Below, one piece after another: positions 6,151 through 63,003 of a stretch of 64,000 nt of DNA (its first letter is position 1; each line of letters begins with the position of its first letter). The translations under genes and the position numbers were made by a program. The stretch is taken from contig CAXWPJ010000009.1 in NCBI GenBank assembly GCA_963664115.2, positions 928,001 to 992,000 of the forward strand, given 5' to 3'. The notes beneath the pieces were generated by a model. It had not been told where the DNA came from, made no database searches, and saw only the letters and a list, made by a program, of their open reading frames with translations. Source of the stretch: Terriglobia bacterium. GTDB taxonomy: Bacteria; Acidobacteriota; Terriglobia; 20CM-2-55-15.

Positions 6151-6270
6151 TGGATTCTCCAGAAGGTCACCGGCAACGGCGGCACGGTGGACTTCATGAT
6201 GCAGGAGACCGCTAAATGCCCTAACTGCAAGCAAACACTGACTGATAAGACCCTGATCGAGCCAAAGTGA
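6151..6270 (+). pseudogene. 3' remnant of a small CxxC protein
   Basis: WILQKVTGNGGTVDFMMQETAKCPNCKQTLTDKTLIEPK*; stop codon abuts repeat site B. Confidence 0.4.
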
Positions 6271-6310
6271 TTCTCAACGTCCGACAAAATCGTTTATCAG
6301 GACCTGAGAA
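6271..6310 (-). repeat. Dispersed quasi-palindromic site, copy B (inverted)
   Basis: TTCTCAACGTCCGACAA-AATCGT-TTATCAGGACCTGAGAA is close to the reverse complement of the consensus. Confidence 0.85.
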
Positions 6311-6399
6311 TTTGAGTTGAGCTTCTGATTGCTTACAAACCCCTCCCTTAGTATTCTTTACCGAGTTTTTCACGGTTCAACTAGCAACACACTATAACG

Positions 6400-6477
6400 A
6401 TGGAATCCGGCACCAAACTCGGCCACTACGAGATCCTCTCTCCGCTCGGCAAAGGCGGTATGGGGAAAGTGTGGAAG
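6400..6477 (+). pseudogene. 5' stub of Ser/Thr kinase (MESGTKLGHYEILSPLGKGGMGKVWK)
   Basis: Near-identical to the N-terminus of the kinase at 17169; similarity ends after 26 codons. Confidence 0.88.
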
Positions 6478-6790
6478 ACCAATCAATCCGGGCAACGTTG
6501 GAGGTGTCTGGTCCGACGGTGGGTTACGGCGGCTTTGCGCCGTATGCTAGGAGCATTACGGAAGCGTGCGGTCCGGGAGAGACGTAACGGCAACGATAAT
6601 CGAGCTGCGTTGACAGATACTCTAGATGGTTCTATTTTGAGGCAATCCACTCGATCCCGATGACTGATAGGGTAAATTTTGTGGAGATCTACGTCGGCAT
6701 CTCTTCGGGAGCATGGAACGATGGACTGGGACACGGCTCCTGGTTCTAAGGCCAGTCTCGTAGTTGGAACCTTTTTTCAAATAGGGGGCT

Positions 6791-7201
6791 ATGATGAAGA
6801 AGCTGGGCACATTTTTCGCCTTGGTCGCGGGCATGGCGATCATCGCCGGGCCGCTATTCGCACATCACGGTACGGGAATTTCGTACGAATTGGACGCGCC
6901 ACTCCTCACGATGAAGGGCACAGTCACGGAATTTGCGTGGCGTAATCCTCATGTGACAATTTTTCTCGACGTAACGGAGGACAACGGCGATGTCGTTAGT
7001 TGGGCATTCGAACACAGCAACATAGCCAATCTAGCCAGGCAGGGGTATCACAGGAATACGTTGCAGGCTGGCCAAGAAGTCACCGTCGTTGGCCATCCTT
7101 CGAAATCAGGCGCGCCCGTTGGGCTTACGGTAGATGTCATACTTGCCGACGGGAGCAAAATACTCCAGAGGAGACAGGCGGGCGCTCCTCCTAGAAACTA
7201 A
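6791..7201 (+). CDS. DUF6152-like small exported protein (copy 2)
   Basis: PLFA|HHG, WRNPH. Confidence 0.88.
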   Translation: MMKKLGTFFALVAGMAIIAGPLFAHHGTGISYELDAPLLTMKGTVTEFAWRNPHVTIFLDVTEDNGDVVSWAFEHSNIANLARQGYHRNTLQAGQEVTVVGHPSKSGAPVGLTVDVILADGSKILQRRQAGAPPRN

Positions 7202-7243
7202 AAATTGAGGACGCGACGCAGAGAGTTGCGTAGGAGGATCAGA

Positions 7244-8107
7244 ATGCCGAATCTTTTCGTGGGCGTGCTGCTGTGGGTACTTTTTCTTCCGTCGCCAGCG
7301 TTCTCCGGCCACCCGGAGGGACAAGAACCGGGAACCGAGGGAGCTGCGAGTCAATTCGATCCACGTGATTTTTCGGGAATCTATATGCGGCGGGGCGGAG
7401 ACCGTGGCCTTAGCGCGGATATTCCTCCCATGACGCCGGAAGGTGAGGCAAGGCTCGACGACAACAGACCTGCCCGCGGAATCCCATTAGGCGACCCGCT
7501 GAACGGGGAACATCCCGGCCGCGCGAGGGCCGTTGTACCTGCGCTTTCAAACGATCCCATGATGGAGTGTAATCCGCAGGGTTTTCCTCGCCTCCTTCTC
7601 GATCCGGAGCTCGTCGAATTCGCTCACCTTGAGAGGCGGCTTCTGCAAATCTTCAACTGGGAAAACAGGATGCGCGAAGTCTGGCTGGACGGGCGAGAAG
7701 TGCCTTCGGGTGAGAACCTTGATAACCTGGGGCTGGCGTGGTACGGACACTCGGTTGGCGAATGGCAGGGAGACACCCTGGTTGTCCACACGGTCGGTCT
7801 TGATGATAGAGCGTGGGTCGATATCTTCGGTTTTCCGAAGAGCTCCGAAGCACGATTTGAAGAGCGCTACAGGAGGATCGACGCCGATACGATAGAGCTA
7901 CAAATTACGATGTATGACCCGAAGTACTACACAGAGCCTTGGGTGTCCGACACGAAGATTTTCGAGCGGCAGCCTGCCGAGAGTTACACGTTCTTTGGGT
8001 GGTCGGGCTTGTTCTCCGGGATTATAGACGGAATCTGCGCGCCGATGAACGAGGTCGATGACTTCAACTCCAGAGTTCGAGATCCTGCGGGCCTGGGTGC
8101 CCAGTGA
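7244..8107 (+). CDS. DUF6152-partner family protein (copy 2)
   Basis: RBS AGGAGG; FDPRDFSG, CNPQGFPR, WYGHSVGEWQGDTLVV, ICAP. Confidence 0.88.
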   Translation: MPNLFVGVLLWVLFLPSPAFSGHPEGQEPGTEGAASQFDPRDFSGIYMRRGGDRGLSADIPPMTPEGEARLDDNRPARGIPLGDPLNGEHPGRARAVVPALSNDPMMECNPQGFPRLLLDPELVEFAHLERRLLQIFNWENRMREVWLDGREVPSGENLDNLGLAWYGHSVGEWQGDTLVVHTVGLDDRAWVDIFGFPKSSEARFEERYRRIDADTIELQITMYDPKYYTEPWVSDTKIFERQPAESYTFFGWSGLFSGIIDGICAPMNEVDDFNSRVRDPAGLGAQ

Positions 8108-46464: not shown

Positions 46465-47006
46465 TTTGTTCATCTGTCTGTAGGGTAGGGAAGTTGGCAG
46501 TGTCCTAATTACCAGAGCATTCTTTCACAGAACTGCGGTCGTGGTCGCTGTGGCGCAAACCGCTGAAGTTCTTTGTCCGGCCGAACCCTTCCCTCGGGAC
46601 GGCTTGGCGGTTTCTTCCGAATCAAACCGAAGGGATAGGATCGTCTCACGACTCGCCGCGACACCCCATAGATTTCCCCACCATTTCGTCCTTTATCAAC
46701 AGTGCGTCTGTGGTGATGTAATTCCCAAGTTGTAATTGCAAAGTGGTCTGGAGGAAGCTGCCAGACCTTTCCAGTTCGCGTATTTTCTTTGGTTCTGACG
46801 GACCCGAGGAAACGTTAGTCCTACCAGCATCTTAGGGTGGGGGACACAGTCGCTCGGAATAGCTTGACAGAAGTTCCGTAGCAGCGTAAAAACAAAGGAT
46901 TAAAATAAATTGTCATTAATAGATGTAAATAGCCATAAATAGCTAATTTGTATCAGTTTGTACTGAGGCTTTGTCGGCCAGATCACCCGAAGTCGAGGAG
47001 GAACTA

Positions 47007-48872
47007 ATGAAATCCGCAAAGTTGGTGCTTGTGCTAATGAGCACGATGGTTCTATGTCTGTCGCTCGTCGTCGTTGCACAGCAAGACCAACCGGCGCCAC
47101 GTCCGCAATCGGATCCCGATATGGGTGCGGTGCATCAGGATCTTTTGAATCCTGAGGATAGGGCCGAGGACGCCAACCGGCTAACGGAAGCTGTGGCTGC
47201 AGCACTGCCTGACGTCACGCCTTCGGGGCCAATAGCTCGAAAGAACTTCGTCGACGAATTCATCTTTGGCCGGATGGAGCGGGAAAATATTCCACATGCG
47301 CCGCTCTCGAGTGATGAAGAGTTTTTGAGACGGGCGTACCTGGATGCAACCGGTCTTTTGCCGGAGGCCGACAAGGTCCGTTCGTTCAAGAGCGACACGG
47401 ATCCCGATAAGCGGGACCAGCTTATCGACGAGTTGATTGGCTCGGAGCCATTCCTGGACCAGTGGGCGTATCACTGGGGAGAGCTGATGAGGGCGGGAGG
47501 CGATTTTCACCTTTGGACAAAAGAGTGGCTCAGGGTAGACCGCCCCTACGACGAAGTTTTCTATGACATCGTTACGCCAACCGCCAGGAACGCGGGCACG
47601 TTTCCGACGAGCGCCGCCTTCTACAACCCCATCAGCTACCTTTCGACCCGCTGTGGATTCTGGATGGATTCCGACGATTACAAAGGCTTCAACCGTCTGG
47701 ACTTTATTGATGAGGTCACGACCGATATCGGGAGGGTCTTTATGGGCCTTCAGGTGGAGTGCATTTCCTGTCATAACGGCGCGGGTCACGCCGACAGCTT
47801 CAACCTTTGGTTGGGCAGCAAGAGGAGAACGGACTTTTGGAGGCAATCGGCTTTCTTTGGGGATATGCGGGTCGTAGGGTACACCCGGGGCGCCGCCAAT
47901 ACCTGGGGCAGGGCCGCCATCTGGGACGACACGGCCGTCGGCTATAACACGGCCATTGACGGATACTACACGCCGGCGGAGAATCGATTTCCGCGCGATG
48001 GCAACACCTACGAACCCGCTTTTCTGCTGACAGGAGAGAAACCGAAACCGGGCGAGACTTCGCGCGAGGCTCTAGGCCGAATCCTGCCGACTCACATCCA
48101 GTTTTCGCGAGCGGCCGTCAACCTGATTTGGCAAAAGTTGATGGTGATCGGTTTGGTCGAGCCCTACTCCGGTTTTGACCTGATGCGCGTGGATCCCAAC
48201 ATTCCGCCGCCTGAGGGGTGGGACTATCAGCCGTCCAATCCCGAACTCTTGCAGGCGCTGGCTGAAGACTTCCGCGACAACAACTTCAGCATCCATCGTG
48301 TAATCAGAACGATCATGAAATCCAACGCCTATCAACTTTCCACCAGCTTTCCGGGTGAATGGACGGAGGCCTATGTCCCGTACCATGCGCGACGGTTCGC
48401 CCGTACGTTCACGCCGGTGGAAGCAATCGATGTCGTTGCCCAGGCGACCGCATCGGGGCTCGGGCTCCGGCAATTCGGCGAGTCCCTGTCCTACATGAAA
48501 GAGATGAACAGTCCTACTAGAGGCGGGGGTGATATCGCGCCTTTCCTGGCCGCGTATTACCAGAGCGACCGGAGGCTGGCACCGCAAAATGTCAATGTGT
48601 CCAGTGCTGTGCAAGCGATGATGATGATGAGTTCGCCGATTGTAAACGACAGGGTGGTGGCCGAAGGCACGACACGGGTGGCGACCCTGATTGAGGCGGG
48701 CAGTTCGGACGATGAAATCATCGAAGAGCTGTTCCTGGCCAGTCTGTCGCGCTGGCCGACCCCCGAGGAGGTGACGGTGGCCAAGCGTCTGCTCGCAGAA
48801 GACACGCGGACGGGTGCCGAAGACATTCAGTGGGCGCTGTTGAATTCCGTGGAATTTGTGGTGAATCATTAA
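47007..48872 (+). CDS. DUF1549/DUF1553 (PSD1-type) protein
   Basis: N.VD.FI, D.EFLRR..LD..G..P, CISCH, PSNPELL.ALA, I..S.AYQ, D..WAL.NS.EF..NH. Confidence 0.9.
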   Translation: MKSAKLVLVLMSTMVLCLSLVVVAQQDQPAPRPQSDPDMGAVHQDLLNPEDRAEDANRLTEAVAAALPDVTPSGPIARKNFVDEFIFGRMERENIPHAPLSSDEEFLRRAYLDATGLLPEADKVRSFKSDTDPDKRDQLIDELIGSEPFLDQWAYHWGELMRAGGDFHLWTKEWLRVDRPYDEVFYDIVTPTARNAGTFPTSAAFYNPISYLSTRCGFWMDSDDYKGFNRLDFIDEVTTDIGRVFMGLQVECISCHNGAGHADSFNLWLGSKRRTDFWRQSAFFGDMRVVGYTRGAANTWGRAAIWDDTAVGYNTAIDGYYTPAENRFPRDGNTYEPAFLLTGEKPKPGETSREALGRILPTHIQFSRAAVNLIWQKLMVIGLVEPYSGFDLMRVDPNIPPPEGWDYQPSNPELLQALAEDFRDNNFSIHRVIRTIMKSNAYQLSTSFPGEWTEAYVPYHARRFARTFTPVEAIDVVAQATASGLGLRQFGESLSYMKEMNSPTRGGGDIAPFLAAYYQSDRRLAPQNVNVSSAVQAMMMMSSPIVNDRVVAEGTTRVATLIEAGSSDDEIIEELFLASLSRWPTPEEVTVAKRLLAEDTRTGAEDIQWALLNSVEFVVNH

Positions 48873-48979
48873 TTCCGGTGAATCAATGATATTGACGGGA
48901 GCCGGGCGGTGGGAACAACGCCGCCCCCCGGTCCTGGATCTCGGATAGTTCGGTTTCATAGAAAGTTTTGGAGGGGAAG

Positions 48980-50449
48980 ATGCTAAAGCCACTCGGGAAT
49001 ATGACCCGCCGCGAATTGCTGAAAGTAATTGGCCTTGGTGTGGGGGCCACGGCCACTTTCGGAGCTCAGGCTGCTTGGCCGCGTAAGGTTCGAGCACAGA
49101 GCAGGACGGTGACGCCTCGAGCGAATGTGCGCAACGTCATTGTGATTCAGAACGTGGGAGCGATGAGTCCGGCTGAGACCCTGGACTTCAAGGAGTCGAA
49201 GTGGACGCCGAAGGATTTCGACATTCAGAGAGTCAATTCCGAATTCAATATCTCCAAAACTCTTTTTCCGAATTACGAAAAGTGGGCGCCCCGAGCGTCT
49301 CTGGTGCGCTCGATGTACGAGAACGGACTGGTCCACTTTCCGGCGCAGTACCATACGCAGTGTGGACGTGCGTTGAACCCGGCTATTGTGAGGGAAGTTC
49401 CGGCCATGGGCAGCATCGTCGCTTACGAGCTCGAATCCGAGCGTCGAGAGTCCGACACCTTTCCGACATATATCAGCATGGATTTGTGGAACGCGAATTG
49501 TAGTCAGATCGGGCAGGGGATGTTGCCCGCCCAATTTGCAGGATTGGACCTCAACACCAGCACCGTGTTTCAGACCTTCGGGGGTGAAGCAGGCGAAGAA
49601 GATGGGATCGATCCGGTGTTGGCCCGAAGGTGGGAGGCCCTACAGAGAATGTCGGAGGTTTCACCCATAGGACAGAATCCAATCGGAGGGAAAGCCTCCG
49701 AGTACCAGTCGCACTATCAGTACGCCTACAGACTTCTCCAGGACGCTCGGTTTAAGGGAGCGCTCCAGTTGACGGAAGAGGAAAAGGTGCGTTACATGGG
49801 GGATCCCGCCCCTCCAGGTACATGTAAGATCGGTCTTCAGGCATTGCTGGCGCGGAATATACTGGCCGCCGATGCCGGTGCACGATTTCTATGGTTATGC
49901 AACTGCTACTATGGCGGCAATGGTTGTTTCGATAACCACGAGTGGATGTACAGCCGGGACCGCTTAGCGCTGACGAACGGAAGAATATCCATTTACGACA
50001 GCGCCCCGATGCTGGATCGAGCCTTGGGTAATCTCGTCGAGGATCTTTCGACCATGCCCGGCCATGACCCTGAGAAGACACTCCTGGATGAAACGATGAT
50101 TGTCGTGGCCCATGAATTCGGGCGCGATCCTGTCATGAACTCCAACGAGGGCCGGGATCATTGGGGACTGTGTTTCACGGATATGTGGCTCGGCGGAGCC
50201 GTCCAGCCGGGACGGGTGATCGGACGTACGGACGATAGGGGCTGGAAGGTTGTCGACAACGGTTGGAAATATAACGAACAACCGATGCATGATCACGACA
50301 CGTCCACGATTTACTCGTGTTTGGGCATCGATTACTCCAAGGTAATCGAAGATACGCCCTCGGGCCGAGTTTTTGAATACCAGCAGACGGCTCCCCTTGG
50401 AGGCCCGGAATTTATTCCGCTGACCGACATCGAGGAGTTGTTCGTGTAG
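48980..50449 (+). CDS. DUF1501 protein with Tat signal
   Basis: TRRELLK; ET.D.K, DNH, EFGR.P..N...GRDHW. Confidence 0.9.
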   Translation: MLKPLGNMTRRELLKVIGLGVGATATFGAQAAWPRKVRAQSRTVTPRANVRNVIVIQNVGAMSPAETLDFKESKWTPKDFDIQRVNSEFNISKTLFPNYEKWAPRASLVRSMYENGLVHFPAQYHTQCGRALNPAIVREVPAMGSIVAYELESERRESDTFPTYISMDLWNANCSQIGQGMLPAQFAGLDLNTSTVFQTFGGEAGEEDGIDPVLARRWEALQRMSEVSPIGQNPIGGKASEYQSHYQYAYRLLQDARFKGALQLTEEEKVRYMGDPAPPGTCKIGLQALLARNILAADAGARFLWLCNCYYGGNGCFDNHEWMYSRDRLALTNGRISIYDSAPMLDRALGNLVEDLSTMPGHDPEKTLLDETMIVVAHEFGRDPVMNSNEGRDHWGLCFTDMWLGGAVQPGRVIGRTDDRGWKVVDNGWKYNEQPMHDHDTSTIYSCLGIDYSKVIEDTPSGRVFEYQQTAPLGGPEFIPLTDIEELFV

Positions 50450-50452
50450 GCT

Positions 50453-51325
50453 ATGGGGCGCAAAGTAATATTGACTCTGCTCTGCTGCGTCTGCGCCGCA
50501 TTACCAAGCGCGCCGGCAGCAGCGCAGGCAGCTACCACGCAAACAACGGCTCCCGAAGACATGGCCTTGATCCCTGCAGGTAAGTTCTGGATGGGCCGCA
50601 CCTTCTTCATGATTCTGGAAACGATGGGTGTCCTGGCCCGGGACAGAATGGACACCATTCCCGCCAACCACATTTACTTGGATGCCTTCTATATCGACAG
50701 GTACGAAGTGATTCAAGCGGACTATGCACGATTCCTTGCCGACACGGGCCTTCGGCCGCCGTGGAACTGGCCTCAAGGCGAGATCCCGGAAGGGGAAGGA
50801 CAGGTTCCGGTTTATAACGTCAACTGGTTTGAAGCAAGCGACTACTGCAGGTGGGTCGGCAAACGTCTCCCCACGGAAGCGGAATGGGAGAAAGCCGCGC
50901 GAGGCGGACTCGATCGGGTCCGTTACTCCTGGGGGGACGACGACATCGATGAAAGCGAGTTCAGGCGGAACCCTCCACAAAATTCTGGAACCAAATACGA
51001 CGTCGACCTTCCTGCGGTCCTGGGCGGCGTGCCCCGTCCTCAGCCCGGCGGAACATTTCCGCCCAATGGCTACGGTCTCTACGACATGATTGGAAACGTC
51101 GCGGAGTGGACAAATGATTGGTACTACGACAATTATTATCCCTTCATGCCGAAAGTGAATCCACGGGGACCGGAGACCGGTTTGTACAAGAGTCTTCGAG
51201 GTTCCAGTTTTGCGGGGGGCGGCGCGTTCGGAAATATGTCCGTTTCGAACCATATGCGCGACTTCAGCGATCCTGAACTCCGTACCTCCGGGATAGGTTT
51301 TCGCTGCGCGAGAGACGCGGGCTAG
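50453..51325 (+). CDS. Formylglycine-generating enzyme (FGE-sulfatase) domain protein
   Basis: RLPTEAEWEKAARGG, PNGYGLYDM.GNV.EW, GFRC. Confidence 0.9.
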   Translation: MGRKVILTLLCCVCAALPSAPAAAQAATTQTTAPEDMALIPAGKFWMGRTFFMILETMGVLARDRMDTIPANHIYLDAFYIDRYEVIQADYARFLADTGLRPPWNWPQGEIPEGEGQVPVYNVNWFEASDYCRWVGKRLPTEAEWEKAARGGLDRVRYSWGDDDIDESEFRRNPPQNSGTKYDVDLPAVLGGVPRPQPGGTFPPNGYGLYDMIGNVAEWTNDWYYDNYYPFMPKVNPRGPETGLYKSLRGSSFAGGGAFGNMSVSNHMRDFSDPELRTSGIGFRCARDAG

Positions 51326-51459
51326 GAAGCTTCGAATACAGAATCACCCCTGGTGACTGACATAAGTTCCAGCCGGTTCTTCGGCGAACGAGTCGAAGAC
51401 ACGACTGCCCACGTTGTGACCAGGAACAATAGGAAAATGGAAGATAAGGATTGGGTTCT

Positions 51460-52032
51460 ATGCGTAAACTGGTATTCATTTTAACTTTCATTGGATTCTT
51501 GGGCCCGTGCGAGCTGCGAGCTCAGAGACCCGAGGTCGAGATAGGCGAAGCCGAACTTTTGGCCACGGAATGGCTGGATAGGCTGAACGCTCTCGACGAT
51601 TGGCATTTGACACCGGAAGGAGAGGAAGTCGGGCTCGAAGAAGTAATCGACGATATGATGGAGCTCTACACTCCCGATGTGATGTCCGAGTTGACGCCTT
51701 ACGACGAAGAACAGATTGGAGCGGTGGTGCTCCGCGGGAGTGGTCAACTTCGGAAATGGGTTGAGACGATTGCGAGAACTCAGGTCAGGATTCAATATAT
51801 CCAGGTCCGTCAGACCGCAGAAGAATACCAGGGAATAGAACTGGTCTATTCCGTGGAATTGCCCTGGGGCGGACTGGGCATTGCCGTCCCGATCATTGCA
51901 GCCTATTCTCAGCGTGAGGATCGTGAGCGGTTTGGGGCGCCGGGAATGTTGGTTCTACAGACGAACGAGGAGGGGAAAATCCACCGGTTCCGTCTCTATC
52001 TGGAAGAGAGGTTCCAGGTTTCAGCGATATAG
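51460..52032 (+). CDS. Exported hypothetical protein, possibly SnoaL/NTF2-like
   Basis: Signal peptide; LY.PD, G...LR.W and GKI...R pattern. Confidence 0.65.
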   Translation: MRKLVFILTFIGFLGPCELRAQRPEVEIGEAELLATEWLDRLNALDDWHLTPEGEEVGLEEVIDDMMELYTPDVMSELTPYDEEQIGAVVLRGSGQLRKWVETIARTQVRIQYIQVRQTAEEYQGIELVYSVELPWGGLGIAVPIIAAYSQREDRERFGAPGMLVLQTNEEGKIHRFRLYLEERFQVSAI

Positions 52033-52139
52033 ACTTGAGACTTTACGCGTGGCGAGAACGTGTTGCGATGGTGATTTTGCAATCGAGTTATTAGCGAGTC
52101 AGGGCAAGATTGGATGGCAGAGAAGGAGTGAGGGACGAC

Positions 52140-52661
52140 ATGAATCGACACTTTGTTCTAAGCATGATAGTAGTCGCGGGAATATTCGCCAGCATAACGA
52201 CGTTTGCACAAAACCGGCCCTATGATCAGGTCATGAAGGACATCGGAGCGACGTCGGAAAGCTTGGGGATTAATCTGGATGGGACCGGCGCCGAGAGCTA
52301 CCAGCCGGTTCGTCTGGACGAGCGGGGCGGCATACTGAGAAATCAAGGAGGAAGGCGCCGGCCCACTGGACCTCGAACTGATGAGGAAATTCAGGCCAGC
52401 GCAGCTGCAGCCGTTGAAGATGCAACCAAACTCGACGGGCTATTCAGGGAAATCGAAGAGTTTTGGACTTCTTTAAATACCCAAGATGCGGTCACGTTGT
52501 CGAAAACCTCGCATGAAAGCGCCGCGGCCATCGTCGAGAAACTCAACGACAACGATTTCGACGGGGCCCAGATCGCCTTCAGAGATGTTCAGCAAGCGTG
52601 CATCCATTGCCACTTCACACACCGCCAACGAACCATTGACGGCTTCTTCATTAGACCGTAA
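52140..52661 (+). CDS. Cytochrome c'-like monoheme protein
   Basis: Signal peptide, helical composition, C-terminal CIHCH. Confidence 0.8.
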   Translation: MNRHFVLSMIVVAGIFASITTFAQNRPYDQVMKDIGATSESLGINLDGTGAESYQPVRLDERGGILRNQGGRRRPTGPRTDEEIQASAAAAVEDATKLDGLFREIEEFWTSLNTQDAVTLSKTSHESAAAIVEKLNDNDFDGAQIAFRDVQQACIHCHFTHRQRTIDGFFIRP

Positions 52662-52735
52662 GCAGCGTGTTGCGCAAAGTTCACTGTGAAATCGTTTCAT
52701 CCTTTTGGTCGAGTTTAAGGGGGGGGGGGGGGGAG

Positions 52736-53566
52736 ATGCAAGGTCAATTGGTCAGAGTGATTGGGGTCCTGATGTTGGTGCTCGTGAGTACCGTGGCGGC
52801 CGAGGCACAGGAGGGCGCGAACCAATTTGATCCACATGATTTCACAGGGATCTGGCTTATGGAACAGGGTGGTGGGCGAATGGGTGGCACTGTGCCTGAG
52901 CTGACACCTCAGGGCGCGGAGATTCTCAGCACGCGTATTCCATCACGAAGTGATGACAGAATTACGGTCACCAACCCGAGCCTTTCGAACTACCCGACTT
53001 ACCAATGCAACCCCGATGGTTTTCCGAATCTGCTTTTGGATGCCGAGCCCATCGAGTTCCTCATGCATGACGACAGGATCCTGCAACTCATCCAGTGGGA
53101 AGGCAGAACACGAGTACTCTGGACGGATGGGCGGGCCGTGCCCTCGGGCGAGAACCTCGAAAACCTTGGACCGGCGTGGTACGGACATTCGGTCGGCGTG
53201 TGGGAAGATGACACCCTTGTCGTCAACACGGTGGGTCTCGAACCCAGAGCCTGGCTCGACAGGCGGGGGCATCCCAAGAGCTTCCACGCGCGGTTCGAGG
53301 AGCGCTATCGTCGCGTCGATGCCAACACCATAGAACTTCAAATTACGGCGTATGATCCGGAAAACTACACCGCCCCCTGGGTCGGTAGTCTGAAAGTCTT
53401 CAAGCTCCTCCCACCCGAAGATTACACCTTTTTTGGGTGGACAGGGTTGTACTCCGGAATCACGGAATCCATCTGCGCGCCGATGGACGAGGTGCAGACT
53501 TACAACGACCGGTTTCGTGATCCTGGGGGCTCTGGAGTCGGGGAAGCAACGATAAACCAGCCATGA
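52736..53566 (+). CDS. DUF6152-partner family protein (copy 9)
   Basis: CNPDGFPN, WYGHSVGVW, ICAP. Confidence 0.88.
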   Translation: MQGQLVRVIGVLMLVLVSTVAAEAQEGANQFDPHDFTGIWLMEQGGGRMGGTVPELTPQGAEILSTRIPSRSDDRITVTNPSLSNYPTYQCNPDGFPNLLLDAEPIEFLMHDDRILQLIQWEGRTRVLWTDGRAVPSGENLENLGPAWYGHSVGVWEDDTLVVNTVGLEPRAWLDRRGHPKSFHARFEERYRRVDANTIELQITAYDPENYTAPWVGSLKVFKLLPPEDYTFFGWTGLYSGITESICAPMDEVQTYNDRFRDPGGSGVGEATINQP

Positions 53567-53641: not shown

Positions 53642-54130
53642 ATGAAGCTTGAAAAACGGATCGTGTTCATGGCCGCGCTGGTGCTCGCAGTGGCCATGCC
53701 GGCATTGGCACAGGTCGAGAAGGCCGCGATGCGGACCACGGGAATCTCCTGCGGTGTTTGCGCTGTCGTATCGGAGGTGAATATCCGACGCATCGAGGGT
53801 GTGGACGAAATCACCATCAGCATGTCCAACGAAACGCTGATGATTTCATATGAGCCTGACGCTCTTTTCGAATCCGTGGAGATTCGCAAGGTTCTCGAAT
53901 CGCTTGACGTTGAAATCACCGTGTTCCAGATCAGCGCGCGCGGCCGTGTCGAGGATCAGGGCGAAAAGCGAATTTTTGTCGCCGGCAGGAACCGGTTTGT
54001 CCTGGCAGCTCCCACTGGAAATGCACCCCGGGTTCCATCCGACACGCCGGTCGTGGTTGAAGCCGTCCTCAACGATCAACTCGATCCCATGGAACTGACC
54101 GTCATGGCCTTCAAGACGGTCCCGCAGTAA
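53642..54130 (+). CDS. Exported HMA-domain protein
   Basis: Signal peptide; GISCGVC followed by I.GV..I. Confidence 0.8.
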   Translation: MKLEKRIVFMAALVLAVAMPALAQVEKAAMRTTGISCGVCAVVSEVNIRRIEGVDEITISMSNETLMISYEPDALFESVEIRKVLESLDVEITVFQISARGRVEDQGEKRIFVAGRNRFVLAAPTGNAPRVPSDTPVVVEAVLNDQLDPMELTVMAFKTVPQ

Positions 54131-54305
54131 GCGCAAACCAGCAATAGACGCCACGCTGATTTCTCATGGGTGCGCGACATGCAAATAGAGCCGCGACGTG
54201 CAAATAGAGCAATCTAGAGCAATGAAGGCGATGGAGTCGGGACCGACTCGGGCACAAGCGAAAAAACAGGCCACCAGTTCTGCGTATTGTTTGGGTAGGA
54301 TTCCG

Positions 54306-54343
54306 AAACCGGCCCTTCCTCCGATTGGAGAAGGGCCGGTTTC
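54306..54343. terminator. Intrinsic terminator (paralog near 56846-56880)
   Basis: GAAACCGGCCCTT...AAGGGCCGGTTTC hairpin. Confidence 0.7.
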
Positions 54344-54387
54344 GTTTTATACGACGGACAGACCGAAAGCGGCCTCGGCGGTGGAAG

Positions 54388-56559
54388 CTACTGGAAGGCC
54401 TCCGGGACGTTGAAGGTAAATATCGCGTTGTGCGTCTTGTCGGACACGATTACGTTCTGATTCCTGACATCGAGCGTGATGCCGCGTACGTCCTTCAAAA
54501 GGAAGTTCGGCCCGCCGATCGTCAACCGGGGCTCCACGGGACCGTCATCGAAGACACTCCACACACCCACGTAATCGTCCAGCCCGAATCGTCCGCCGCC
54601 TCCGACGTTTCCGAAAATCATCCCGCTCTCCGGATTGACGGTCATCCTCGAAGCTCCGGTATCCGTGATGACCCGGAGCGGCGGCGTGTTGCCCGAAGCC
54701 CTGCGGTCGAATATTCGGAGGTCACCCCCGCCTGAGACGATCATGAGATCGTGCACGGGGTCTATTGTTACCCGGCCCTCCCCACGCAAGCCCGTGTCGG
54801 GTCCTTCCAGGATACGGATGGGCGCCACGTCGCCGTCCGCGTCCCGGTCGAAGACCAGCACCCGGCGGACTTGAGGCACATAAATTTCTCCATTTACGGG
54901 ATCGATGGCCACCCGCTGACTGTTCACCAGTTGCGTGCGGGGTCCCATAATCTGTCGGACGGGCGCCGCGTCGCCATCCGCGTCCCCACGGAAAGTGAGA
55001 ATAGAAAAGTTATACCAACCGGGAACGAGAATTTCATCCCGCACCGGGTCGTAGGCCATGTCGTGAATGGTGCGCGTGAAATTTGTATTCTGTCCGGCAA
55101 TGGAGCGCGTCGCGTCTGTACTTCCATCCGCCAGCCTGGCGAATGCCGCAATCTGCGGGTGGCCCACTCAGTTGGAGCCCAGGATTTCTTCCCTCAGGGT
55201 GTCGTACGCGATCGTATGGACATTGGCGAGCATGGGCCCACGGGAGTCGGCCGGACCACTGCGAATCACGCGCTTGGGAGTGGCATCCCCATCCGCCGTG
55301 ATGTCATACACGGTTGCTGAGTGACTGCCCAGATTGGCGACCCACAGCTCGTCGTTTATCAGGTCTACCTTCACCCCGACAGGGTTTTTGATCAAGGAGT
55401 TGGGACCCTGGAGGACTCGAATAGGCGCGGCGTCGCCGTTCGCATCGGCGCTGTAAACCGTCACGGTGTGGCCGGTGTCGTTCGCGACGAAAATCTCGCC
55501 CCGGTCCGGATGCACCGCAATATCGGTCGGCCAGTTCAGCAAGGTGTTGGGACCCTGGATCACTCGTATTGGCGCGACATTACCGGCCCCATCCTTGCGG
55601 TAGACGGTAATGGAGGGCGGTTCGGTCCGTCCCGATCCCGGAATGTTGGCCAAGCGCGAGACGGGCCAGTTGGGTTTTCCAGTGCCACGATTGAAGACGG
55701 CCGGCGTGTCTTCGTCATAATAGCGATCCGCCGCCGTGCCCCAGTTGCTGACATAAAGCAGGCCCGTGTTCGGGTCCAGGGCGATCCCATGGGGATCGGC
55801 CATTCGGGTGGCCGGCCCCTGGATCAACCGCACCGGCGGCTCTTCGTCCTGGGCCGCTTTCCGAAAGACCGAGACCGCATGATCATCCTGGACGGTCATG
55901 AAGATTTCCTGGGTGGCTTCATCGATGGCCATCCGGACGGTCGTATGCGGCGTGGCGAGTTTCCGCTTCGGCGCCACATTGCCCTGGGCATCACGGCCCC
56001 ACACCGTCATCCAGTTCAAGGTGTCATTGTTGATGGCATAGATGTCGCCGCTTCCGGGGTCGACATAGATACCGCAAACGTATTCCAGGAAGGTGTCTTC
56101 TCCCTGAATGACCCGTCTGGGTTCGCTGAACGCTGCGGTTGGCGGTGTATTCGTATTTCGGTCGTAGACGACGATGCTGAAATTGTTCTCGTCCCCAGCG
56201 ACAAGTTCATTCCGGATGGGGTCGATGTCAATGGCTGCAAACACATGACGGGAGTCATGAATCGTACGGATCGGCGGCCTTGTCGCCACCGCCGCCTTGA
56301 CCGCTTCACTCGGCCGGGGGGGCGGGTCCGTAGCTGCCGCCGCTTGCCCGGCGCCTTGCACCAGTGCCATCAGATTCTCTGGCGTGCGGGCCCCAGCCAT
56401 CAGAGTTTCCGGGCCGACTTCGGGCGTTCGTTCCTCCCCAATTAAATTCGTCTGCCCGTTTCCGTCCGGCCCCAGCTGCTCGTGTTGAGGCAGCGCGCCC
56501 ACGGTCACCGACAGACATAAAATCAGTGTGATCACTAAAACCCACTGCCGTGCTTTCAT
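54388..56559 (-). CDS. Exported repeat beta-propeller, candidate selenoprotein (UGA at 55168-55170), copy 1
   Basis: Two abutting same-frame ORFs separated only by TGA (LGSN-*-VGHPQ); repeat unit continues across the stop; 723 aa if read through. Confidence 0.8.
55125..55145 (-). promoter_or_regulatory. Candidate bacterial SECIS hairpin, copy 1
   Basis: CAUUCGCCA-GGC-UGGCGGAUG; G-starting loop 31 nt after UGA. Confidence 0.6.
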
Positions 56560-56612
56560 CTCAGTCCTCCGCAATTCCCGAGGGTTAATTTTGTGGACAC
56601 TTCGTGTTGCTG

Positions 56613-56642
56613 ACCTTAGGGTCTTTCAATCTTTTCTGTCAA
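56613..56642 (-). promoter_or_regulatory. Sigma70-like promoter conserved in both duplicates
   Basis: TTGACA-N18-TAAGGT here and at 59193-59222. Confidence 0.6.
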
Positions 56643-56925
56643 GCACTATGGAGTGACCTTTGTTCAAGATGGCAAGGCGTTCAGCGATGCGCTCAGTGAC
56701 TGCGGCTACCTCGGCATTCCCGGGCGGAACCTGTAGCAGCACGCGGACGAATGAAATCAGATACGTGTGCTTTTCCTACGCGTTATCAGGTGGGAAGCAC
56801 CGGGAAACAACGCTACGAAGCGCCATCCGTGATTGGAAGGTGGGAGACCGGCCCCGCCTCCGATTGGAGACGGGCCGGTTTCTTTTTAGACAACGGCAAA
56901 CCGAAAGCGGCCTCGGTGGCGGAAG

Positions 56926-59142
56926 CTACTGGAAGGCCTCCGGGACGTGGAAGGTAAATATCGCGTTGTGGGTCTTATCGGACGCGATTACGTTCTGATT
57001 ACTGACATCGACGGCAATGCCACGGACGTCCTTCAGGAGGACGTTCGGACCGCCGATCGTCCACCGGGGCGGAACGGGACCGTCATCGAAGACGCTCCAC
57101 ACACCCACATAGTCTGACAGGCTGTATCGCCCCATGAGGGATCGGACTTCGGGAGGCAGTTCAGGATCTGGCTCGATATCCATAGATCCAGTTGCGAACA
57201 TCATCCCGCTCTCCGGATCGATAGCCCGGACCCCACCGCCACCTTCGATGAACCGGAGCGGCGGGGTGTTTCCCGAAGCTGTGCGATCGAAGATTCGGAT
57301 GCCGCCGCCACCCGAGACGACCAGGAAACCGTGCACGGGGTCGACCGCTACCCGGCCCTCCCCACGCAAGCCCGTGTCGGGTCCCTCCAGGATCCGGATG
57401 GGCGCCACATCGCCGTCCGCGTCCCGGTCGAAGACCAGCACCCGGCGAGGTTGAGGAACGAAAATCTCTCCGTTTACGGGATCGACGGCCACGCGCTGAC
57501 TATTCACCAGTTGCGTGCGGGGTCCCATAATCTGGCGGACGGGCGCCGCATCGCCATCCGCGTCCGCGCTGAATGTGAGAATAGAAAAGTTATACCAACC
57601 CGGTACGACGATTTCATCCCTCACCGGGTCGTAGTCCATGCCGTGAATCGTACGGCTGAAGAGCGTGTTTTGTCCTGCAATGGACCGTGTCGCCTGTGTG
57701 CTTCCATCCGCCAGCCTGGCGAATGCCGCAATCTGCGGGTGGCCCACTCAGTTGGAGCCCAGTATCTCCCCTCTCCGGGAGTCGAACGTGATCGTATGGA
57801 CGTTGGCGAGCATGGGTCCGCGGGAGTCGGCGGGACCGCTGCGAATCACGCGCTTCGGGGTGGCGTCCCCGTTGGCCGTAATGTCGTACACGGTCGCGGA
57901 GTGACTGCCCAGATTCGCAACCCACAGCTCGTTGTTCGTCAGGTCGACCTTCACGCCGACAGGGTGTTGGATCAAGGTGTTGGGACCCTGGAGGACTCGA
58001 ATAGGAGTGGCGTTGCCGTCCGCACCGGCGCTGTAAACCGTCACGGTGTGGCCGGTGTCATTCGCGACGAAGATCTCGCCCCGTTCCGGATGCACCGCTA
58101 TATCGGTCGGCCAGTTCAGCAAGGTGTCGGGACCCTGGATCACTTGCAATGGGGCGACGTTGCCGGTCGCGTCCTTGCGGTACACGGTAATGGAGGGCGG
58201 CTCGTTCCTTCCCGATCCCGGAATGTTGCCTTCGCGCCCGGCCGGCCAGTTGGCTTTTCCATCTCCCTGACCTCTCGTGGTCAACCCAAGGTCATAGTAG
58301 CGGTCCGCCACCGTGCCCCAGTTGGTGACGTAAAGCAGGCCCGTGTTCGAGTCCACGGCGATCCCGTGAGGATCGGCCAATTGGGTGGCCGGCCCCTGGA
58401 TCAGCCGCAGCGGCGACTCGTCGTCCTGAGCCGTTTTCCTGAAGACCGAGACCGCATGGTCATCCTGGACCGTCATGAAGATTTCCTGGGTGGCTTCATC
58501 GATGGCCATCCGGACCGTCGTGTGGGGGGTGGCGAGTTTCCGCTTCGGCTCCGCATTGCCCTGGGCGTCACGGCCCCACACCGTCATCCAATTCAAGGTG
58601 TCATTGTTGATGGCATAGATGTCGCCGCTCCCCGGGTCGACATAGATGCCGCACACGTATTCCAGGAAGGTGCTGTCTCCCTGTATGACCCGTCGGGGTT
58701 CGCTGAACGCCGCGGTCGGAGGTGTATCCGTCATCCGGTCGTAGACGACGATGCTGAAATTATTCTCGTCGCCGGCTATCAGTTCATTCCGGACGGGATC
58801 GATGTCGATGGCGGCAAACACATGCCGGGCGTCATGGATAGTCCGGATCGGAGGTCGTTGCGCCACCGCGGCCCTTTCCGCCTCACTGGGCCGGGGGGGA
58901 GGCCCCGTTGCTGCTCCCGTTTGCCCGGCGCCTTGAACGAGCGCCATCGGATTCTCTGGAGCGCGGGCCGCAGCTATGAGAGTTTCCGGGGCGGCCATCG
59001 GCTCCGCGGAAACGAGGCTGGCCTCCCCTGTCATTGTTGTCTGCCCGTCTCCGCCCGGCTGCAGCTGCTCGTGTTGCGGCAGCGCGGCCACGGCCACCGA
59101 CAGACATAAAACCAGTGAGATCATTAGAACGCACTGTTTCAT
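56926..59142 (-). CDS. Exported repeat beta-propeller, candidate selenoprotein (UGA at 57748-57750), copy 2
   Basis: Same in-frame TGA at the same position; 738 aa if read through. Confidence 0.8.
57705..57725 (-). promoter_or_regulatory. Candidate bacterial SECIS hairpin, copy 2
   Basis: Identical to copy 1. Confidence 0.6.
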
Positions 59143-59652: not shown

Positions 59653-62600
59653 ATGAGAATGCGACCGATTAGATTGATGTTTGGGATGATCGCCGTCCTT
59701 GCGCTGAGTTCGACTGCGTTTGGACAGGCCACAGCTCAAATTAGCGGCACCGTGCAAGACGCGACGGGCGCGCTAATTCCGGGCGCGGAAGTGACAGTGA
59801 CTCAAATTGACACCGGTGCGAACCGCCTGGCGGTGACCAACGAAACCGGATCCTACGTTCTAACCAGTCTGCCAATTGGCCCCTATCGGCTTGAAGCAGT
59901 CTTGCCGGGGTTCCAGACCTTTGTCCAGACGGGAATCGTCCTGCAGGTCAATGGCGCACCTGTCGTCAATGTCACCCTCAATGTGGGTCAGGTCACGCAA
60001 ACCATCGAGGTGCAGGCGAACGCGGCCATGGTCGAGACCCGCACCGTCGGGGTCGGCCAGATGATGGCTGGCGCGCAGCTGCTGGAACTGCCCCTCAACG
60101 GGCGCAACGCCACCGAGCTGATTCTGCTCTCGGGGGGCGCCGTCGACATGGGGGAGACTTCCAACACGTCTTTCGCCGGCAGGCTGCGGGTCTCGGTCGG
60201 GGGTAGCCAGGGTTATGGAACGATGTACAGTCTCGACGGAATCCAGCACTATTCTCCCTACGACGGCGTGGGCCTGCCCCTGCCGTTTCCCGATGCGCTG
60301 GAGGAGTTCCGGGTCGAAACCAGCGGGCTCACGGCAAAGAACGGGCGATCCGCCTCGGTGGGCGCGGTGACAAAGTCTGGGACGAATCAATATCACGGCG
60401 ACCTGTTCTGGTTTGTCCGCAACGACCTGTTCAATGCCCGACATTATTTTGCGGACAAGGGCAGCACGCTCAAGCGCAACCAGTATGGCGGCACGATCGG
60501 CGGACCCATTCTCCAGAACAAGCTCTTTTTCTTTGGTGGCTACCAGGGCACCATCACCGTACAAGACCCGGCGGACACGCGGTCCTTCGTTCCTACTGCG
60601 GCGATGATGGCCGGCGATTTCACAGAGTACGCTTCCGCGGCTTGTGCGGGCGGGGGGGGGACCACTCTCAATGCACCTTTCGTCAACAACCGGATCGATC
60701 CGGCACTGTTCAGCCCGGCGGCGGTGAACCTTGCTGGGCGTATTCCGAGGTCAACCGACCCTTGCGGTGAAATTACCTACGGGCAAAGGGAAGACATTGA
60801 CCTGGCGCAGCTCGTTTCGCGGGTGGACTATGAAATTAACGACTCGCATTCCATGTTCGGGCGGTTTCTATATGACTACGATGACCGACCCAGCGCCTTA
60901 TCGCACACCCCGGACTTCGCCTTGAACTCAAACACGAGGAGCTTCAACAACCACGCCACGGCGTTCGCCTTCGGCGTCACCTCTCTGTTCGGTGGGACTA
61001 CAGTGAACTCGTTCCGTATAGCGGCCAGCAAGACGAACGTCCAGCGCGGCGGGGAGGAGTTTTTCAGCGCCTCCGATCTTGGGGTTCAAAATCACTTCAC
61101 CTATGTCCCGAATTTCATGACCATAGTGATGGACGACGGGTTTGATATCGGCGGCAGGAGCATCGCGAGGGCCCGCTTCAGGACTACCTTCCTCCAGCTG
61201 GCTGACGATGTGCAAATGGTCAAGGGCAACCATCAGGTTTCGTTCGGCGGAAGCATCGGGCATGCGCATCTGGTCTATCGACCCACTCCGAATGCCCCGG
61301 GCATTTTCGAGTTCGACGGTGGGACTACCGGCTTGGTCCTGGGGGACTTCCTCCTCGGGAACTTGGCCGAATACAGGCAGGGCGCCCCCACCAACAATGT
61401 TCTCAGGCAGACCCAGACTAACCTGTATGTGCAGGACGTCTGGCAATTGACACCCCGGTTGACGGCCAATTATGGCATCCGCTGGGCGCCCAATATACCG
61501 ATGCGGGATCAGACCAATCCGGTGGCGGCCGTGATGACGTTCAATATGGACAATTACCGGGCGGGGATCGTGAGCACCACCTACCCGAATGCTCCGGCGG
61601 GTCTGCTCTACTCTGGCGACGCCGGTTATGAGCTTTCGAATAGGGAGGTCATGCTGCCGAATTGGACAAATTTTGGACCGCGTCTGGGCCTGGCCTGGGA
61701 CGTGACCGGAGACGGCCGCACATCGCTCAGGGCATCTTACGGGATCACTACAGACGAATTCCCTCTGCGGTTGCGGGGCGGGAACTCGACCGGGCAAGCG
61801 CCGTTTGGTAATGACATCAGACAGGATACACCGGGGGGGGGCTTCGACAATCCATGGCGGGACTATCCGGGCGGGAATCCATTCCCGACATCACTGGGCC
61901 CCGATGCGCTATTTCCGTTCGAGGACGCGGACTATGAATCGCAGCCAGCTCGTGTTCCGCCGACCACCGTGGGTTCGTGGAATATCAGTCTCCAGAGGGA
62001 GCTTGCGACAGACTGGCTTCTGTCGGCGAGCTATACGGGAAGCCAGATTTACCATCTCTGGGGCATGAACGCTCTCAATGACGGAATCTTCGTTCCGGGC
62101 GAAACTGATGCGAACGGAAACTGTACTTTTGGAACCTATACGTTCAAGGCGGATAGCCGCGGCCGGGAAGGCCGCGATTGCTCCACCCGGAGTGGGAGCA
62201 ATGTTGATCTGCGGCGGACCTTGCGCATGATAGATCCGGTGGAGGGAGTGCAAATTGGACAACTGGGGGAATATGACTATGGCAACACCCAGAGCTACAA
62301 CGCCATGATCGTCTCCCTCGAGCGTCGCGCCGCGGACGGCGTGACCATGACCGGCAACTATACCTGGTCTCACTGCGTCGGTTACTTCGGGGGCCGGGCC
62401 GCCACCGGGACCAGTTTAAGAGTTCGGGACACCTTCCGGATCAACAACGACCGCAGTTTCGATCGCGGCAATTGCGTTCAGGACGTGCGGCACACCATGA
62501 ACCTCAGAGGCGTGGCCGAAACTCCCGAATTCGCTAATTCAACGCTGCGAGCCGTGGGGTCGGGTTGGCGGATGGCGCTGATCTACCGGGTGAGGTCAGG

Positions 62601-63003
62601 CTCCACACTTGCCACAAGCACGGGTACTGACCGCGCCTTGACCGGCCAGCACCGAACAATCCAACGGCCCGACGTGGCCGGGTCACCGTACACCGGCGAT
62701 TCCGGGCCCGGTGCTCGATACCTGAGCACGGATGCGATCACGCAGCCGGCTAGTGGCACGCATGGCAATTTGGGCTGGAACGCCCTCTATGGCCCCACGC
62801 AATGGCAATTCGACGTGGCCTTGACCCGGTCATTCCAGCTCACCGAGGCGCAGAGTGTTGAGTTCCGAGTCGAAGCGTACAACCTGACCAATAGCTTCCG
62901 GGCCTCGAATCCGGCGGTTCGCCTCAACATAAGCACTTTCGGAGTAATCCGAGACTCTGATGACCCGAGGATCTTGCAGTTCGCGATTAAGTACGTCTTC
63001 TAA
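59653..63003 (+). CDS. TonB-dependent receptor (Oar-like, N-terminal carboxypeptidase-regulatory domain)
   Basis: G.V.D.TGA.IPGA.V, LPLNGRN, TKSGTN..HG, PR.G.AWD, C-terminal PR.LQ...K..F. Confidence 0.93.
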   Translation: MRMRPIRLMFGMIAVLALSSTAFGQATAQISGTVQDATGALIPGAEVTVTQIDTGANRLAVTNETGSYVLTSLPIGPYRLEAVLPGFQTFVQTGIVLQVNGAPVVNVTLNVGQVTQTIEVQANAAMVETRTVGVGQMMAGAQLLELPLNGRNATELILLSGGAVDMGETSNTSFAGRLRVSVGGSQGYGTMYSLDGIQHYSPYDGVGLPLPFPDALEEFRVETSGLTAKNGRSASVGAVTKSGTNQYHGDLFWFVRNDLFNARHYFADKGSTLKRNQYGGTIGGPILQNKLFFFGGYQGTITVQDPADTRSFVPTAAMMAGDFTEYASAACAGGGGTTLNAPFVNNRIDPALFSPAAVNLAGRIPRSTDPCGEITYGQREDIDLAQLVSRVDYEINDSHSMFGRFLYDYDDRPSALSHTPDFALNSNTRSFNNHATAFAFGVTSLFGGTTVNSFRIAASKTNVQRGGEEFFSASDLGVQNHFTYVPNFMTIVMDDGFDIGGRSIARARFRTTFLQLADDVQMVKGNHQVSFGGSIGHAHLVYRPTPNAPGIFEFDGGTTGLVLGDFLLGNLAEYRQGAPTNNVLRQTQTNLYVQDVWQLTPRLTANYGIRWAPNIPMRDQTNPVAAVMTFNMDNYRAGIVSTTYPNAPAGLLYSGDAGYELSNREVMLPNWTNFGPRLGLAWDVTGDGRTSLRASYGITTDEFPLRLRGGNSTGQAPFGNDIRQDTPGGGFDNPWRDYPGGNPFPTSLGPDALFPFEDADYESQPARVPPTTVGSWNISLQRELATDWLLSASYTGSQIYHLWGMNALNDGIFVPGETDANGNCTFGTYTFKADSRGREGRDCSTRSGSNVDLRRTLRMIDPVEGVQIGQLGEYDYGNTQSYNAMIVSLERRAADGVTMTGNYTWSHCVGYFGGRAATGTSLRVRDTFRINNDRSFDRGNCVQDVRHTMNLRGVAETPEFANSTLRAVGSGWRMALIYRVRSGSTLATSTGTDRALTGQHRTIQRPDVAGSPYTGDSGPGARYLSTDAITQPASGTHGNLGWNALYGPTQWQFDVALTRSFQLTEAQSVEFRVEAYNLTNSFRASNPAVRLNISTFGVIRDSDDPRILQFAIKYVF

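Follow-up and report, generated by a model that had tools for sequence, protein, structure and literature searches.

The window analyzed here is a 64,000-nt stretch of a Terriglobia bacterium genome (GCA_963664115.2, contig CAXWPJ010000009.1, positions 928,001 to 992,000), and its subject is a pair of tandem minus-strand paralogs that encode predicted exported β-propeller proteins, each split by one in-frame TGA. An initial annotation made from the letters alone had proposed that each pair of same-frame open reading frames (ORFs) is one gene in which UGA specifies selenocysteine (Sec), directed by a downstream hairpin of the selenocysteine insertion sequence (SECIS) type. The arrangement holds as described: both paralogs carry EILGSN-TGA-VGHPQIAAF and would yield proteins of 723 and 738 residues. 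The host genome (G000) comprises 4.89 Mb in 12 contigs and is 97% complete. The features of the two genes are as follows.

54388-56559, minus strand: double β-propeller gene 1, one coding sequence, 723 residues if read through, predicted Sec464
55168-55170, minus strand: in-frame TGA of gene 1 (predicted Sec464, motif N-U-V-x-H-P)
55125-55145, minus strand: main SECIS-type hairpin of gene 1, with a stem of 9 bp and a GGC loop that lies 31 nt past the UGA
55146-55158, minus strand: smaller proximal hairpin of gene 1, 5 bp, core pairs near-invariant in TGA genes, no compensatory change seen
56074-56076, minus strand: Cys162 of gene 1 (LEYVCG), located in the propeller 1 mouth, possible second thiol, variable within the family
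56926-59142, minus strand: double β-propeller gene 2, one coding sequence, 738 residues if read through, predicted Sec465
57748-57750, minus strand: in-frame TGA of gene 2 (predicted Sec465)
57705-57725, minus strand: main SECIS-type hairpin of gene 2, no different from its gene 1 counterpart
57726-57738, minus strand: smaller proximal hairpin of gene 2
58651-58653, minus strand: Cys164 of gene 2 (LEYVCG)

The two genes agree at 1844 of 2230 alignment columns. As had been pointed out, 62 nt around and after the UGA are identical (55121-55182 and 57701-57762), and this is the longest identical run between the genes, the next measuring 44 nt; given their overall similarity, the run by itself constitutes modest evidence. 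The same constraint is also present across far more distant copies. Gene conversion or recent duplication was considered as the source of the identity and rejected, as neither explains codons fixed across paralogs 38-47% identical and across genomes. An assembly error at the gene 2 TGA is excluded because a contig from an independent RNA-library run (X7, 57663-57817) spans it without a difference; such runs represent small shares of the window (0.05-0.16), and their contigs show neither level nor strand. About 45 nt downstream of each propeller gene lies a GC-rich inverted repeat (54304-54344 and about 56848-56885) that was duplicated along with the gene. With its T-run on the plus-strand side, it may terminate an opposing transcript or act bidirectionally. 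A scan for promoters and terminators returned results at chance level.

Both genes are real, although describing them as a pair was too narrow: this genome carries 13 copies of the family, which is also associated with a neighboring HMA-type protein. The 13 paralogs retrieved by tblastn are 38-97% identical, and all 13 carry TGA at one shared column within the motif N-TGA-[V/L]-x-[H/F/Y]-P. A third close paralog (C9:993839-995965, 81-84% identical) lies outside the window at its 3' end, just past the TonB-dependent receptor gene, with a fourth about 10 kb further. Two others (C2:357230-359266 and C9:1077054-1079282) are 97% identical on different contigs, reflecting recent duplication or assembly redundancy.

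The in-frame UGA as a probable selenocysteine codon

The column occupied by the TGA was followed through homologous proteins and loci. A protein search gave 2332 matches at E ≤ 1e-10 among 7998 scored candidates, i.e., at least 2332 database proteins. Among the best 120 matches, all 71 full-length proteins place Cys at the column, and the remaining 49 stop on the residue just before it. Nucleotide loci were sampled with a profile that gave 269 rows, other blades included, of which 98 were kept by a context filter that took no account of the column. Three of these rows (ACG, AAG) belonged to another region and were excluded; no row with TGA, Cys, TAA, or TAG was dropped. Across the resulting 83 loci (L009-L091), the column holds TGA 83 times, TGC or TGT 12 times, and TAA or TAG never. 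Propeller matches occur in 11 of 41 related genomes, where 148 of the 150 listed matches (215 in total) contain exactly one in-frame TGA, one contains two, and one contains none; the position of the TGA was checked for the fetched loci. In one relative, G001, each of 27 listed places has one in-frame TGA.

Close relatives of genes 1 and 2 come from records titled Terriglobia or Acidobacteria, and the wider family is found in Acidobacteriota as well as in records titled Binatia, Planctomycetota, Verrucomicrobiia, and Gemmatimonadaceae. A FastTree phylogeny of 162 proteins, computed with the Sec column, the hairpin element, and Cys162 masked, requires at least 15 changes between Sec and Cys; the tree is unrooted, so that gains are not separable from losses.

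The initial annotation had suggested searching the genome for the Sec machinery, and selA, selB, selC, and selD all score above their curated cutoffs, with tRNA-Sec also found by ARAGORN. The selD gene carries its own in-frame TGA followed by a hairpin with a GGA loop. At the same time, TGA is the commonest stop of long ORFs (at least 350 codons) in this genome, terminating 959 of them outside the family, and Cys and TGA paralogs stand side by side in three of the five genomes checked. An alternative genetic code is thereby ruled out. A rough genome scan for further Sec sites gave 67 candidates, mostly noise. Other probable Sec codons with hairpins lie in G000 at C2:360043, C2:701068, C9:74840, C2:768686, C5:131175, C12:268903, C2:786105, and C10:288080; judged by eye from their motifs, these candidates resemble DUF3179-like, OsmC-like, and rhodanese-like proteins, two peroxiredoxin-like proteins, and three deiodinase-like proteins.

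The main hairpin, CAUUCGCCA-GGC-UGGCGGAUG, has the G-starting loop and the 31-nt spacing originally described. The published model of the bacterial SECIS (bSECIS) element calls for G within the first two loop positions, a distance of 16-37 nt from the UGA, a stem of 4-16 bp, and an energy of at most -7.5 (PMC13188914), and the main hairpin agrees with it in loop, spacing, and stem (9 bp, -11.3 in our own stem evaluation). When the SECIS rule was applied to the stops of all ORFs of at least 350 codons in this genome, 12 of 13 family TGAs were positive, versus 8 of 959 other TGAs, 20 of 602 TAGs, and 6 of 490 TAAs, so the hairpin exceeds chance. Among the fetched loci, 79 of the 83 TGA genes have a 4-bp core and a G[G/U] loop, compared with 1 of the 12 Cys genes; one Cys gene (L060) encodes the same FARLA peptide with different codons. 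No Rfam family was found for the hairpin, the sole hit being a chance microRNA match (E 2.3).

Codon choice within the element is similarly restricted. The 15-mer TTCGCCAGGYTGGCG occurs 13 times in the genome, always 24 nt after a family TGA. Where all 13 paralogs share an amino acid at a degenerate position, a single codon is used at 5 of 6 columns inside the element and at 0 of 62 outside, where such columns use a mean of 3.5 codons. The Arg codon of the element is AGG in all 13 paralogs, although AGG makes up 7.6% of Arg codons in the long ORFs of the genome; across the fetched loci, this rare codon is kept in 80 of 83 TGA genes and in 0 of 12 Cys genes.

RNA covariation, proposed earlier as a check, was assessed over 77 aligned TGA genes: 95% of cells pair, and compensatory pairs were found. 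A stem pair joining two third-codon positions appears as AU (34), GC (17), CG (6), and UA (6), with both sides changed in 29 of 77 genes. The covariation score was reached by 0 of 500 shuffles, a control that leaves kinship in place, and slid controls scored lower. RNAalifold recovered the same two helices. The second of these is the smaller CCGCA-GAU-UGCGG hairpin, also part of the original description, whose three core pairs are kept in 76-77 of the 77 genes.

Some observations limit the case for Sec. Most stem pairs never vary and by themselves are silent on structure. Furthermore, selA presence was tried and rejected as a discriminator of TGA from Cys forms: it is found in 36 of 41 related genomes, in 22 of 24 TGA-bearing genomes, and in 5 of 6 genomes chosen for a Cys copy, which renders it uninformative. 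It was not found in G015, which is 81% complete, or in two small genomes.

The split could also be taken at face value, as translationally coupled genes in which a GTG start follows the TGA, as a pseudogene stop, or as another genetic code. A GTG does directly follow the TGA in 79 of 83 loci and 12 of 13 paralogs, and gene callers annotate the propeller gene as two separate halves. Coupled genes are ruled out by the codons that deviate, GTC, GTA, or GTT at the four remaining loci (not start codons) and CTG in the remaining paralog, together with the existence of fused Cys forms. In addition, the break falls within a blade, the fused form has Cys exactly there in all 71 full-length matches, and the hairpin accompanies TGA rather than Cys. 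An absence of recoding is thus very improbable. The proposal that UGA is read as Sec in the 723- and 738-residue proteins is strongly supported by the machinery, by the Cys-or-TGA column, and by the TGA-linked hairpin, and from sequence the insertion of Sec at residue 464/465 is very likely. Each refuting condition listed in the initial annotation turned out, when checked, on the side of Sec. SelB with Sec-tRNA would bind the GG-loop hairpin 31 nt downstream to insert the residue, and failed recoding would yield propeller 1 plus half a blade.

Predicted fold and the conserved top face

Structure prediction with AlphaFold2 (73-row alignment) gave a mean predicted local distance difference test score (pLDDT) of 89.6 and a predicted template modeling score (pTM) of 0.87. 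The predicted architecture starts with a helix at the N-terminus, followed by a disordered linker and then by 12 NHL-like blades of four strands each, arranged as two six-bladed propellers. Both elements of the earlier designation as exported β-propellers were recovered in the predictions. The gene 1 protein has a hydrophobic N-terminal export signal at about residues 1-22, and a strongly hydrophobic N-terminal stretch is present in 146 of 161 family members; this segment would export the protein or anchor it in the periplasm. Each half matches six-bladed NHL domains (TRIM71, TRIM2, SOQ1, NHLRC2, the PknD sensor, and PAL) with Z scores of 25-29, a root-mean-square deviation of 2-3 Å over about 250 residues, and 10-19% identity. 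With 12 repeats, two predicted domains, and a Z score of 29 to NHL domains, the halves can be classed as six-bladed NHL-repeat propellers; matches to Pfam NHL (PF01436) are weak but over the cutoff of 20 bits, at 37.9 and 47.1 bits. Foldseek with the whole model retrieved tandem WD40 proteins at a template modeling score of about 0.3, a PDB sequence search gave weak generic propeller matches only (15 sequences, best E 3e-7), and the Atlas matches were only unnamed or automatically named clusters of the propeller family. Unlike the NHL propellers, the window proteins contain two in tandem, the second predicted to be closed by a strand from the N-terminus, and bear the Sec/Cys on the propeller itself. 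In SOQ1 and NHLRC2, the redox Cys is located in a separate thioredoxin domain.

The stop had been placed in the middle of a repeat blade, and it does fall within blade 7. With the blades aligned to one another, residue 464 opens the b-c loop of this blade, the slot also filled by E124, N178, and K708, while the slot at the start of strand a is filled by C162, H257, T345, H448, and H499. In propellers, both slots are top-face positions. Conserved polar residues on this face include D179 (100%), H257, N272, W343, and N360 (99% each), and H413 (93%), followed by N446 (98%), H467 (91%), R496 and H499 (100% each), and K708 (90%). Because this conservation covers blades 1-8 and 12 and spares blades 9-11, which have no conserved top-face residue, it fits one site built from the propeller 1 top together with those propeller 2 blades that lie next to the hinge, with the two top faces presumably facing each other. 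The Sec would sit on the top face near the hinge, probably surrounded by H467, N446, R496, H499, and K708 of its own propeller; propeller 1 may contribute D123, E124, N177-N178-D179, Q224, D255, H257, N272, W343, N360, and H413. A functional role of the Sec, whether catalytic or as a metal ligand, is highly probable.

The Cys of LEYVCG had been named as a possible redox partner of the Sec. Such a role is possible. C162 is carried by 70 of the 81 Sec forms, compared with 13 of the 81 Cys forms; the residue is not invariant, and its link to Sec is not significant after correction for kinship. In kinship-independent pairs, about four changed the same way, none the opposite way, and nine showed no difference (p 0.125). 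Most proteins lacking C162 have a Cys in the N-terminal arm, and all proteins lacking the N-terminal Cys carry C162, including both window proteins, which have no Cys in that arm. Among the 162 proteins, two N-terminally short records have neither. A co-evolution of Sec with H448 was also tried and was not significant in independent pairs (p 1).

The distribution of the second Cys bears on two further interpretations of the Sec. In the first, it is the metal-free center of a thiol oxidoreductase, in which C162 or the N-terminal-arm Cys resolves a selenenyl-sulfide and the HMA-type CxxC/UxxC neighbor serves as an electron shuttle. Such chemistry would be in keeping with a second Cys that is almost universal at either of two places and with a C162 that is never set against Sec in independent pairs, and the catalogued selenoproteins are for the most part regarded as redox proteins (PMC13188914). 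However, the association of C162 does not survive correction for kinship, 11 of 81 Sec forms are without it, and it lies in the channel mouth of propeller 1, in the slot of H257, where contact would require the two propellers to close with their faces together. The many invariant His, Asp, and Asn residues are also left unexplained, and a thiol oxidoreductase is possible but on balance unlikely. In the second, the Sec is structural or regulatory, forming a fixed Se-S clamp with the second Cys in the oxidizing periplasm or tying full-length synthesis to selenium supply. The near-constant second Cys agrees with a clamp, and the at least 15 Sec/Cys switches indicate that Cys can substitute. Thirteen paralogs, with identities as low as 38%, have all retained a costly recoding signal, and the column is 100% Cys or Sec; both facts are better accommodated by a catalytic residue, and a structural or regulatory role appears highly unlikely.

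The neighboring HMA-type protein and a possible metal site

The propeller genes are flanked on the plus strand by the following genes.

53642-54130, plus strand: exported HMA/CopZ-like protein, C37-x-x-C40, convergent with gene 1, likely partner as judged from sequence
59653-63003, plus strand: TonB-dependent-receptor-like outer membrane protein, divergent from gene 2

Neighborhoods were surveyed in 86 loci, 74 of them fetched and 12 from G000, with flanks of 4-5 kb and many short contigs. The recurrent flanking families are TonB-dependent receptors (32 of 86), an unnamed exported family (14), amidohydrolase 3 (10), and HMA-type CxxC proteins (9). TonB-dependent receptors are abundant in these genomes, and their link to the propeller genes may be unspecific. 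In three genomes, the propeller gene is flanked by pairs of a molybdopterin oxidoreductase (SoxC-like domains) and a cytochrome c (L034:1926-3840 and 6164-7967, L062:6278-8165, L076:1811-5058), twice in L034 and L076. Upstream of the HMA gene in the window, positions 46971-52661 hold DUF1501, FGE-sulfatase-domain, cytochrome c'-like, and unnamed exported genes, and 52667-53566 (plus strand) encodes an exported protein of about 300 residues that has no Pfam match. The latter represents a very large uncharacterized expansion: it occurs in 18 of 41 genomes, all as one family, with at least 57 matches in this genome as well as in four relatives.

The flanking genes enter into a further interpretation, in which the Sec is the nucleophile of a hydrolase, lyase, or transferase (a Sec-His dyad with H467 or H499) and the paralogs process the cargo of TonB-dependent receptors. 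The N-U/C-V-x-H-P motif and structural neighbors that include PAL, lactonases, phytase, and PON1 would be compatible with this role, six-bladed propellers frequently bear such enzymes on the top face, and the recurrent amidohydrolase and receptor genes point in the same direction. Yet H467 is replaced in 15 of 162 proteins, and the Pfam lactonase match is weak and partial (E 4e-7); a nucleophilic Sec is accordingly rated as distinctly unlikely.

The HMA homolog appears in several arrangements: convergent in the window, divergent in L047, L049, L055, L087, and L088, and, in L060, L065, and L077, located immediately upstream in the same orientation, with SCO1 preceding it. L065 and L077 contain a run of cytochrome c, PCuAC, SCO1, HMA, and propeller genes (L065:1869-3740, L077:1869-3767), and L060 contains SCO1-HMA (L060:126-1480). 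In L065 and L077, a second propeller gene follows the run, convergent, divergent in sequence, and in the Cys form. The first Cys of the HMA motif is encoded by TGA, giving UxxC, in L047 (2767-3180), L049 (855-1256), L055 (2048-2476), and L087 (2641-3042), all on the minus strand, and in loci of G030 and G038; one G030 copy lies about 6 kb from selA. These genes share a downstream sequence able to form a GG-loop hairpin about 39 nt away, just beyond the bSECIS range. The HMA protein, also represented in L101 and L102, has 281 database homologs and an extra C-terminal domain of about 70 residues. It matches the UxxU metal-binding protein model NF041115 at E 1e-7, but with 32 bits versus a cutoff of 95. 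Like NF041115, the putative mercuric transport protein, and the cation-transporting ATPase of the UxxC type, it has an HMA-like N-terminal domain with Sec/Cys in a metal-binding xxC motif; unlike known HMA-type selenoproteins, it is exported, carries the extra C-terminal domain, has a UxxC form, and is linked to the propeller family. Its UxxC form is, by sequence, possibly a second uncatalogued selenoprotein subfamily. Of the 11 propeller genomes, 10 have a strong HMA match (E < 1e-15), as does 1 of the 30 others, and two further matches are weak, while a control family from the same region is found in 18 of 41 genomes, missing from two with propeller genes and present in nine without.

A soft-metal site is proposed because this HMA CxxC neighbor co-occurs with the propeller family, is UxxC in several cases, and sits in copper-chaperone operons elsewhere. 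The choice of copper rests on analogy with, rather than membership in, the family of methanethiol oxidase (MtoX/SBP56), a periplasmic enzyme with His-ligated Cu whose gene accompanies an SCO1/SenC copper chaperone gene (PMC5739008). MtoX is not described in that source as a Sec protein (PMC5739008). The likeness, an analogy only, lies in SCO1, PCuAC, and cytochrome c genes beside the propeller gene in some loci (SCO1 in 3 of 86); a MauG neighbor was not seen, and the window proteins match no SBP56 model in Pfam (E ≤ 0.01) or NCBIfam (E ≤ 1). Compared with the His-ligated copper of SBP56/MtoX, the propeller sequences offer invariant H257 and H499 and near-invariant H413 and H467 as candidate ligands.

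In the last and least certain step of the proposed mechanism, a soft metal, most likely copper, would be delivered by the co-inherited HMA-type CxxC/UxxC protein, and the site would act on small substrates in the periplasm by redox or thiol chemistry. With the chemistry kept and the loops varied, the paralogs, 13 or more in number, would differ in substrate. Several observations weigh against this proposal. No metal-binding motif of a known enzyme was matched, and the fold matches show no function. In 77 of 86 loci, there is no HMA neighbor within the flanks fetched, the co-occurrence comes from genomes that are kin, and there are only one or two HMA genes per 13-30 propeller matches. A Sec acting as the reactive selenolate of a His/Asp/Asn-lined soft-metal site, likely copper supplied by the HMA-type protein, is put forward as the leading but tentative assignment. 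More doubtful is the wider picture of a previously undescribed periplasmic copper-selenolate system, in which a double-propeller selenoenzyme with 13-30 paralogs in some Acidobacteriota would be loaded by its own exported HMA-type chaperone, itself UxxC in several lineages.

Relation to known selenoproteins

The recoding mechanism is a known one. The propeller genes resemble known bSECIS selenoprotein genes in a UGA aligned to Cys, a 3-nt loop starting with GG, a 9-bp stem, the 31-nt spacing, and the presence of selABCD, and they differ in a second small conserved hairpin between the UGA and the main stem and in having 13 paralogs in one genome. The suggestion that they represent a new selenoprotein family is borne out as very likely, with a fold new to the class. 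Table 1 of PMC13188914, which comprises 119 families, has no propeller, NHL, or lactonase entry and does not list the N-U-V-x-H-P motif. No NCBIfam 20.0 selenoprotein model matches either propeller protein at E ≤ 1. Term searches found no propeller selenoprotein in BSepDB (main text and part of the supplement), deep-Sep, the Olavius paper, or SelCysML, as far as their available texts extend; in the main text and four supplements of deep-Sep, "NHL" occurs only inside sequences. An "NHL repeat" selenoprotein of an Olavius symbiont was also looked for, with no occurrence in the Olavius paper. Literature searches, at the level of listings and the opening lines of abstracts, retrieved no paper on such a protein, although the unvalidated candidates of Deng et al. 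2026 could include the family. The labels 6-phosphogluconolactonase and YncE, defined by equivalog cutoffs and a seven-bladed single propeller, do not apply either: scores were 27-30 bits versus 370 (NF008258) and 10-12 bits versus 400 (NF052280).

Characterized selenoprotein families are mostly thioredoxin-fold redox proteins, and the record whole selenoproteomes comprise 57 and 63 genes (PMC13188914). Against those totals, this one family accounts for 13 Sec genes here and 27 listed places in G001. The taxa in which it occurs are not among the anaerobic groups described as having the most Sec. Because at least 2332 proteins match and Sec forms are annotated as two fragments, gene catalogues and the selenium demand of these bacteria are mis-stated. 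The 15 or more switches between Sec and Cys provide a test bed for why Sec is kept, and the natural Cys homologs ease assay of the chemistry. If the assignment is true, 13-30 paralogs per genome in some Acidobacteriota would rank among the largest single-family selenoprotein expansions in bacteria.

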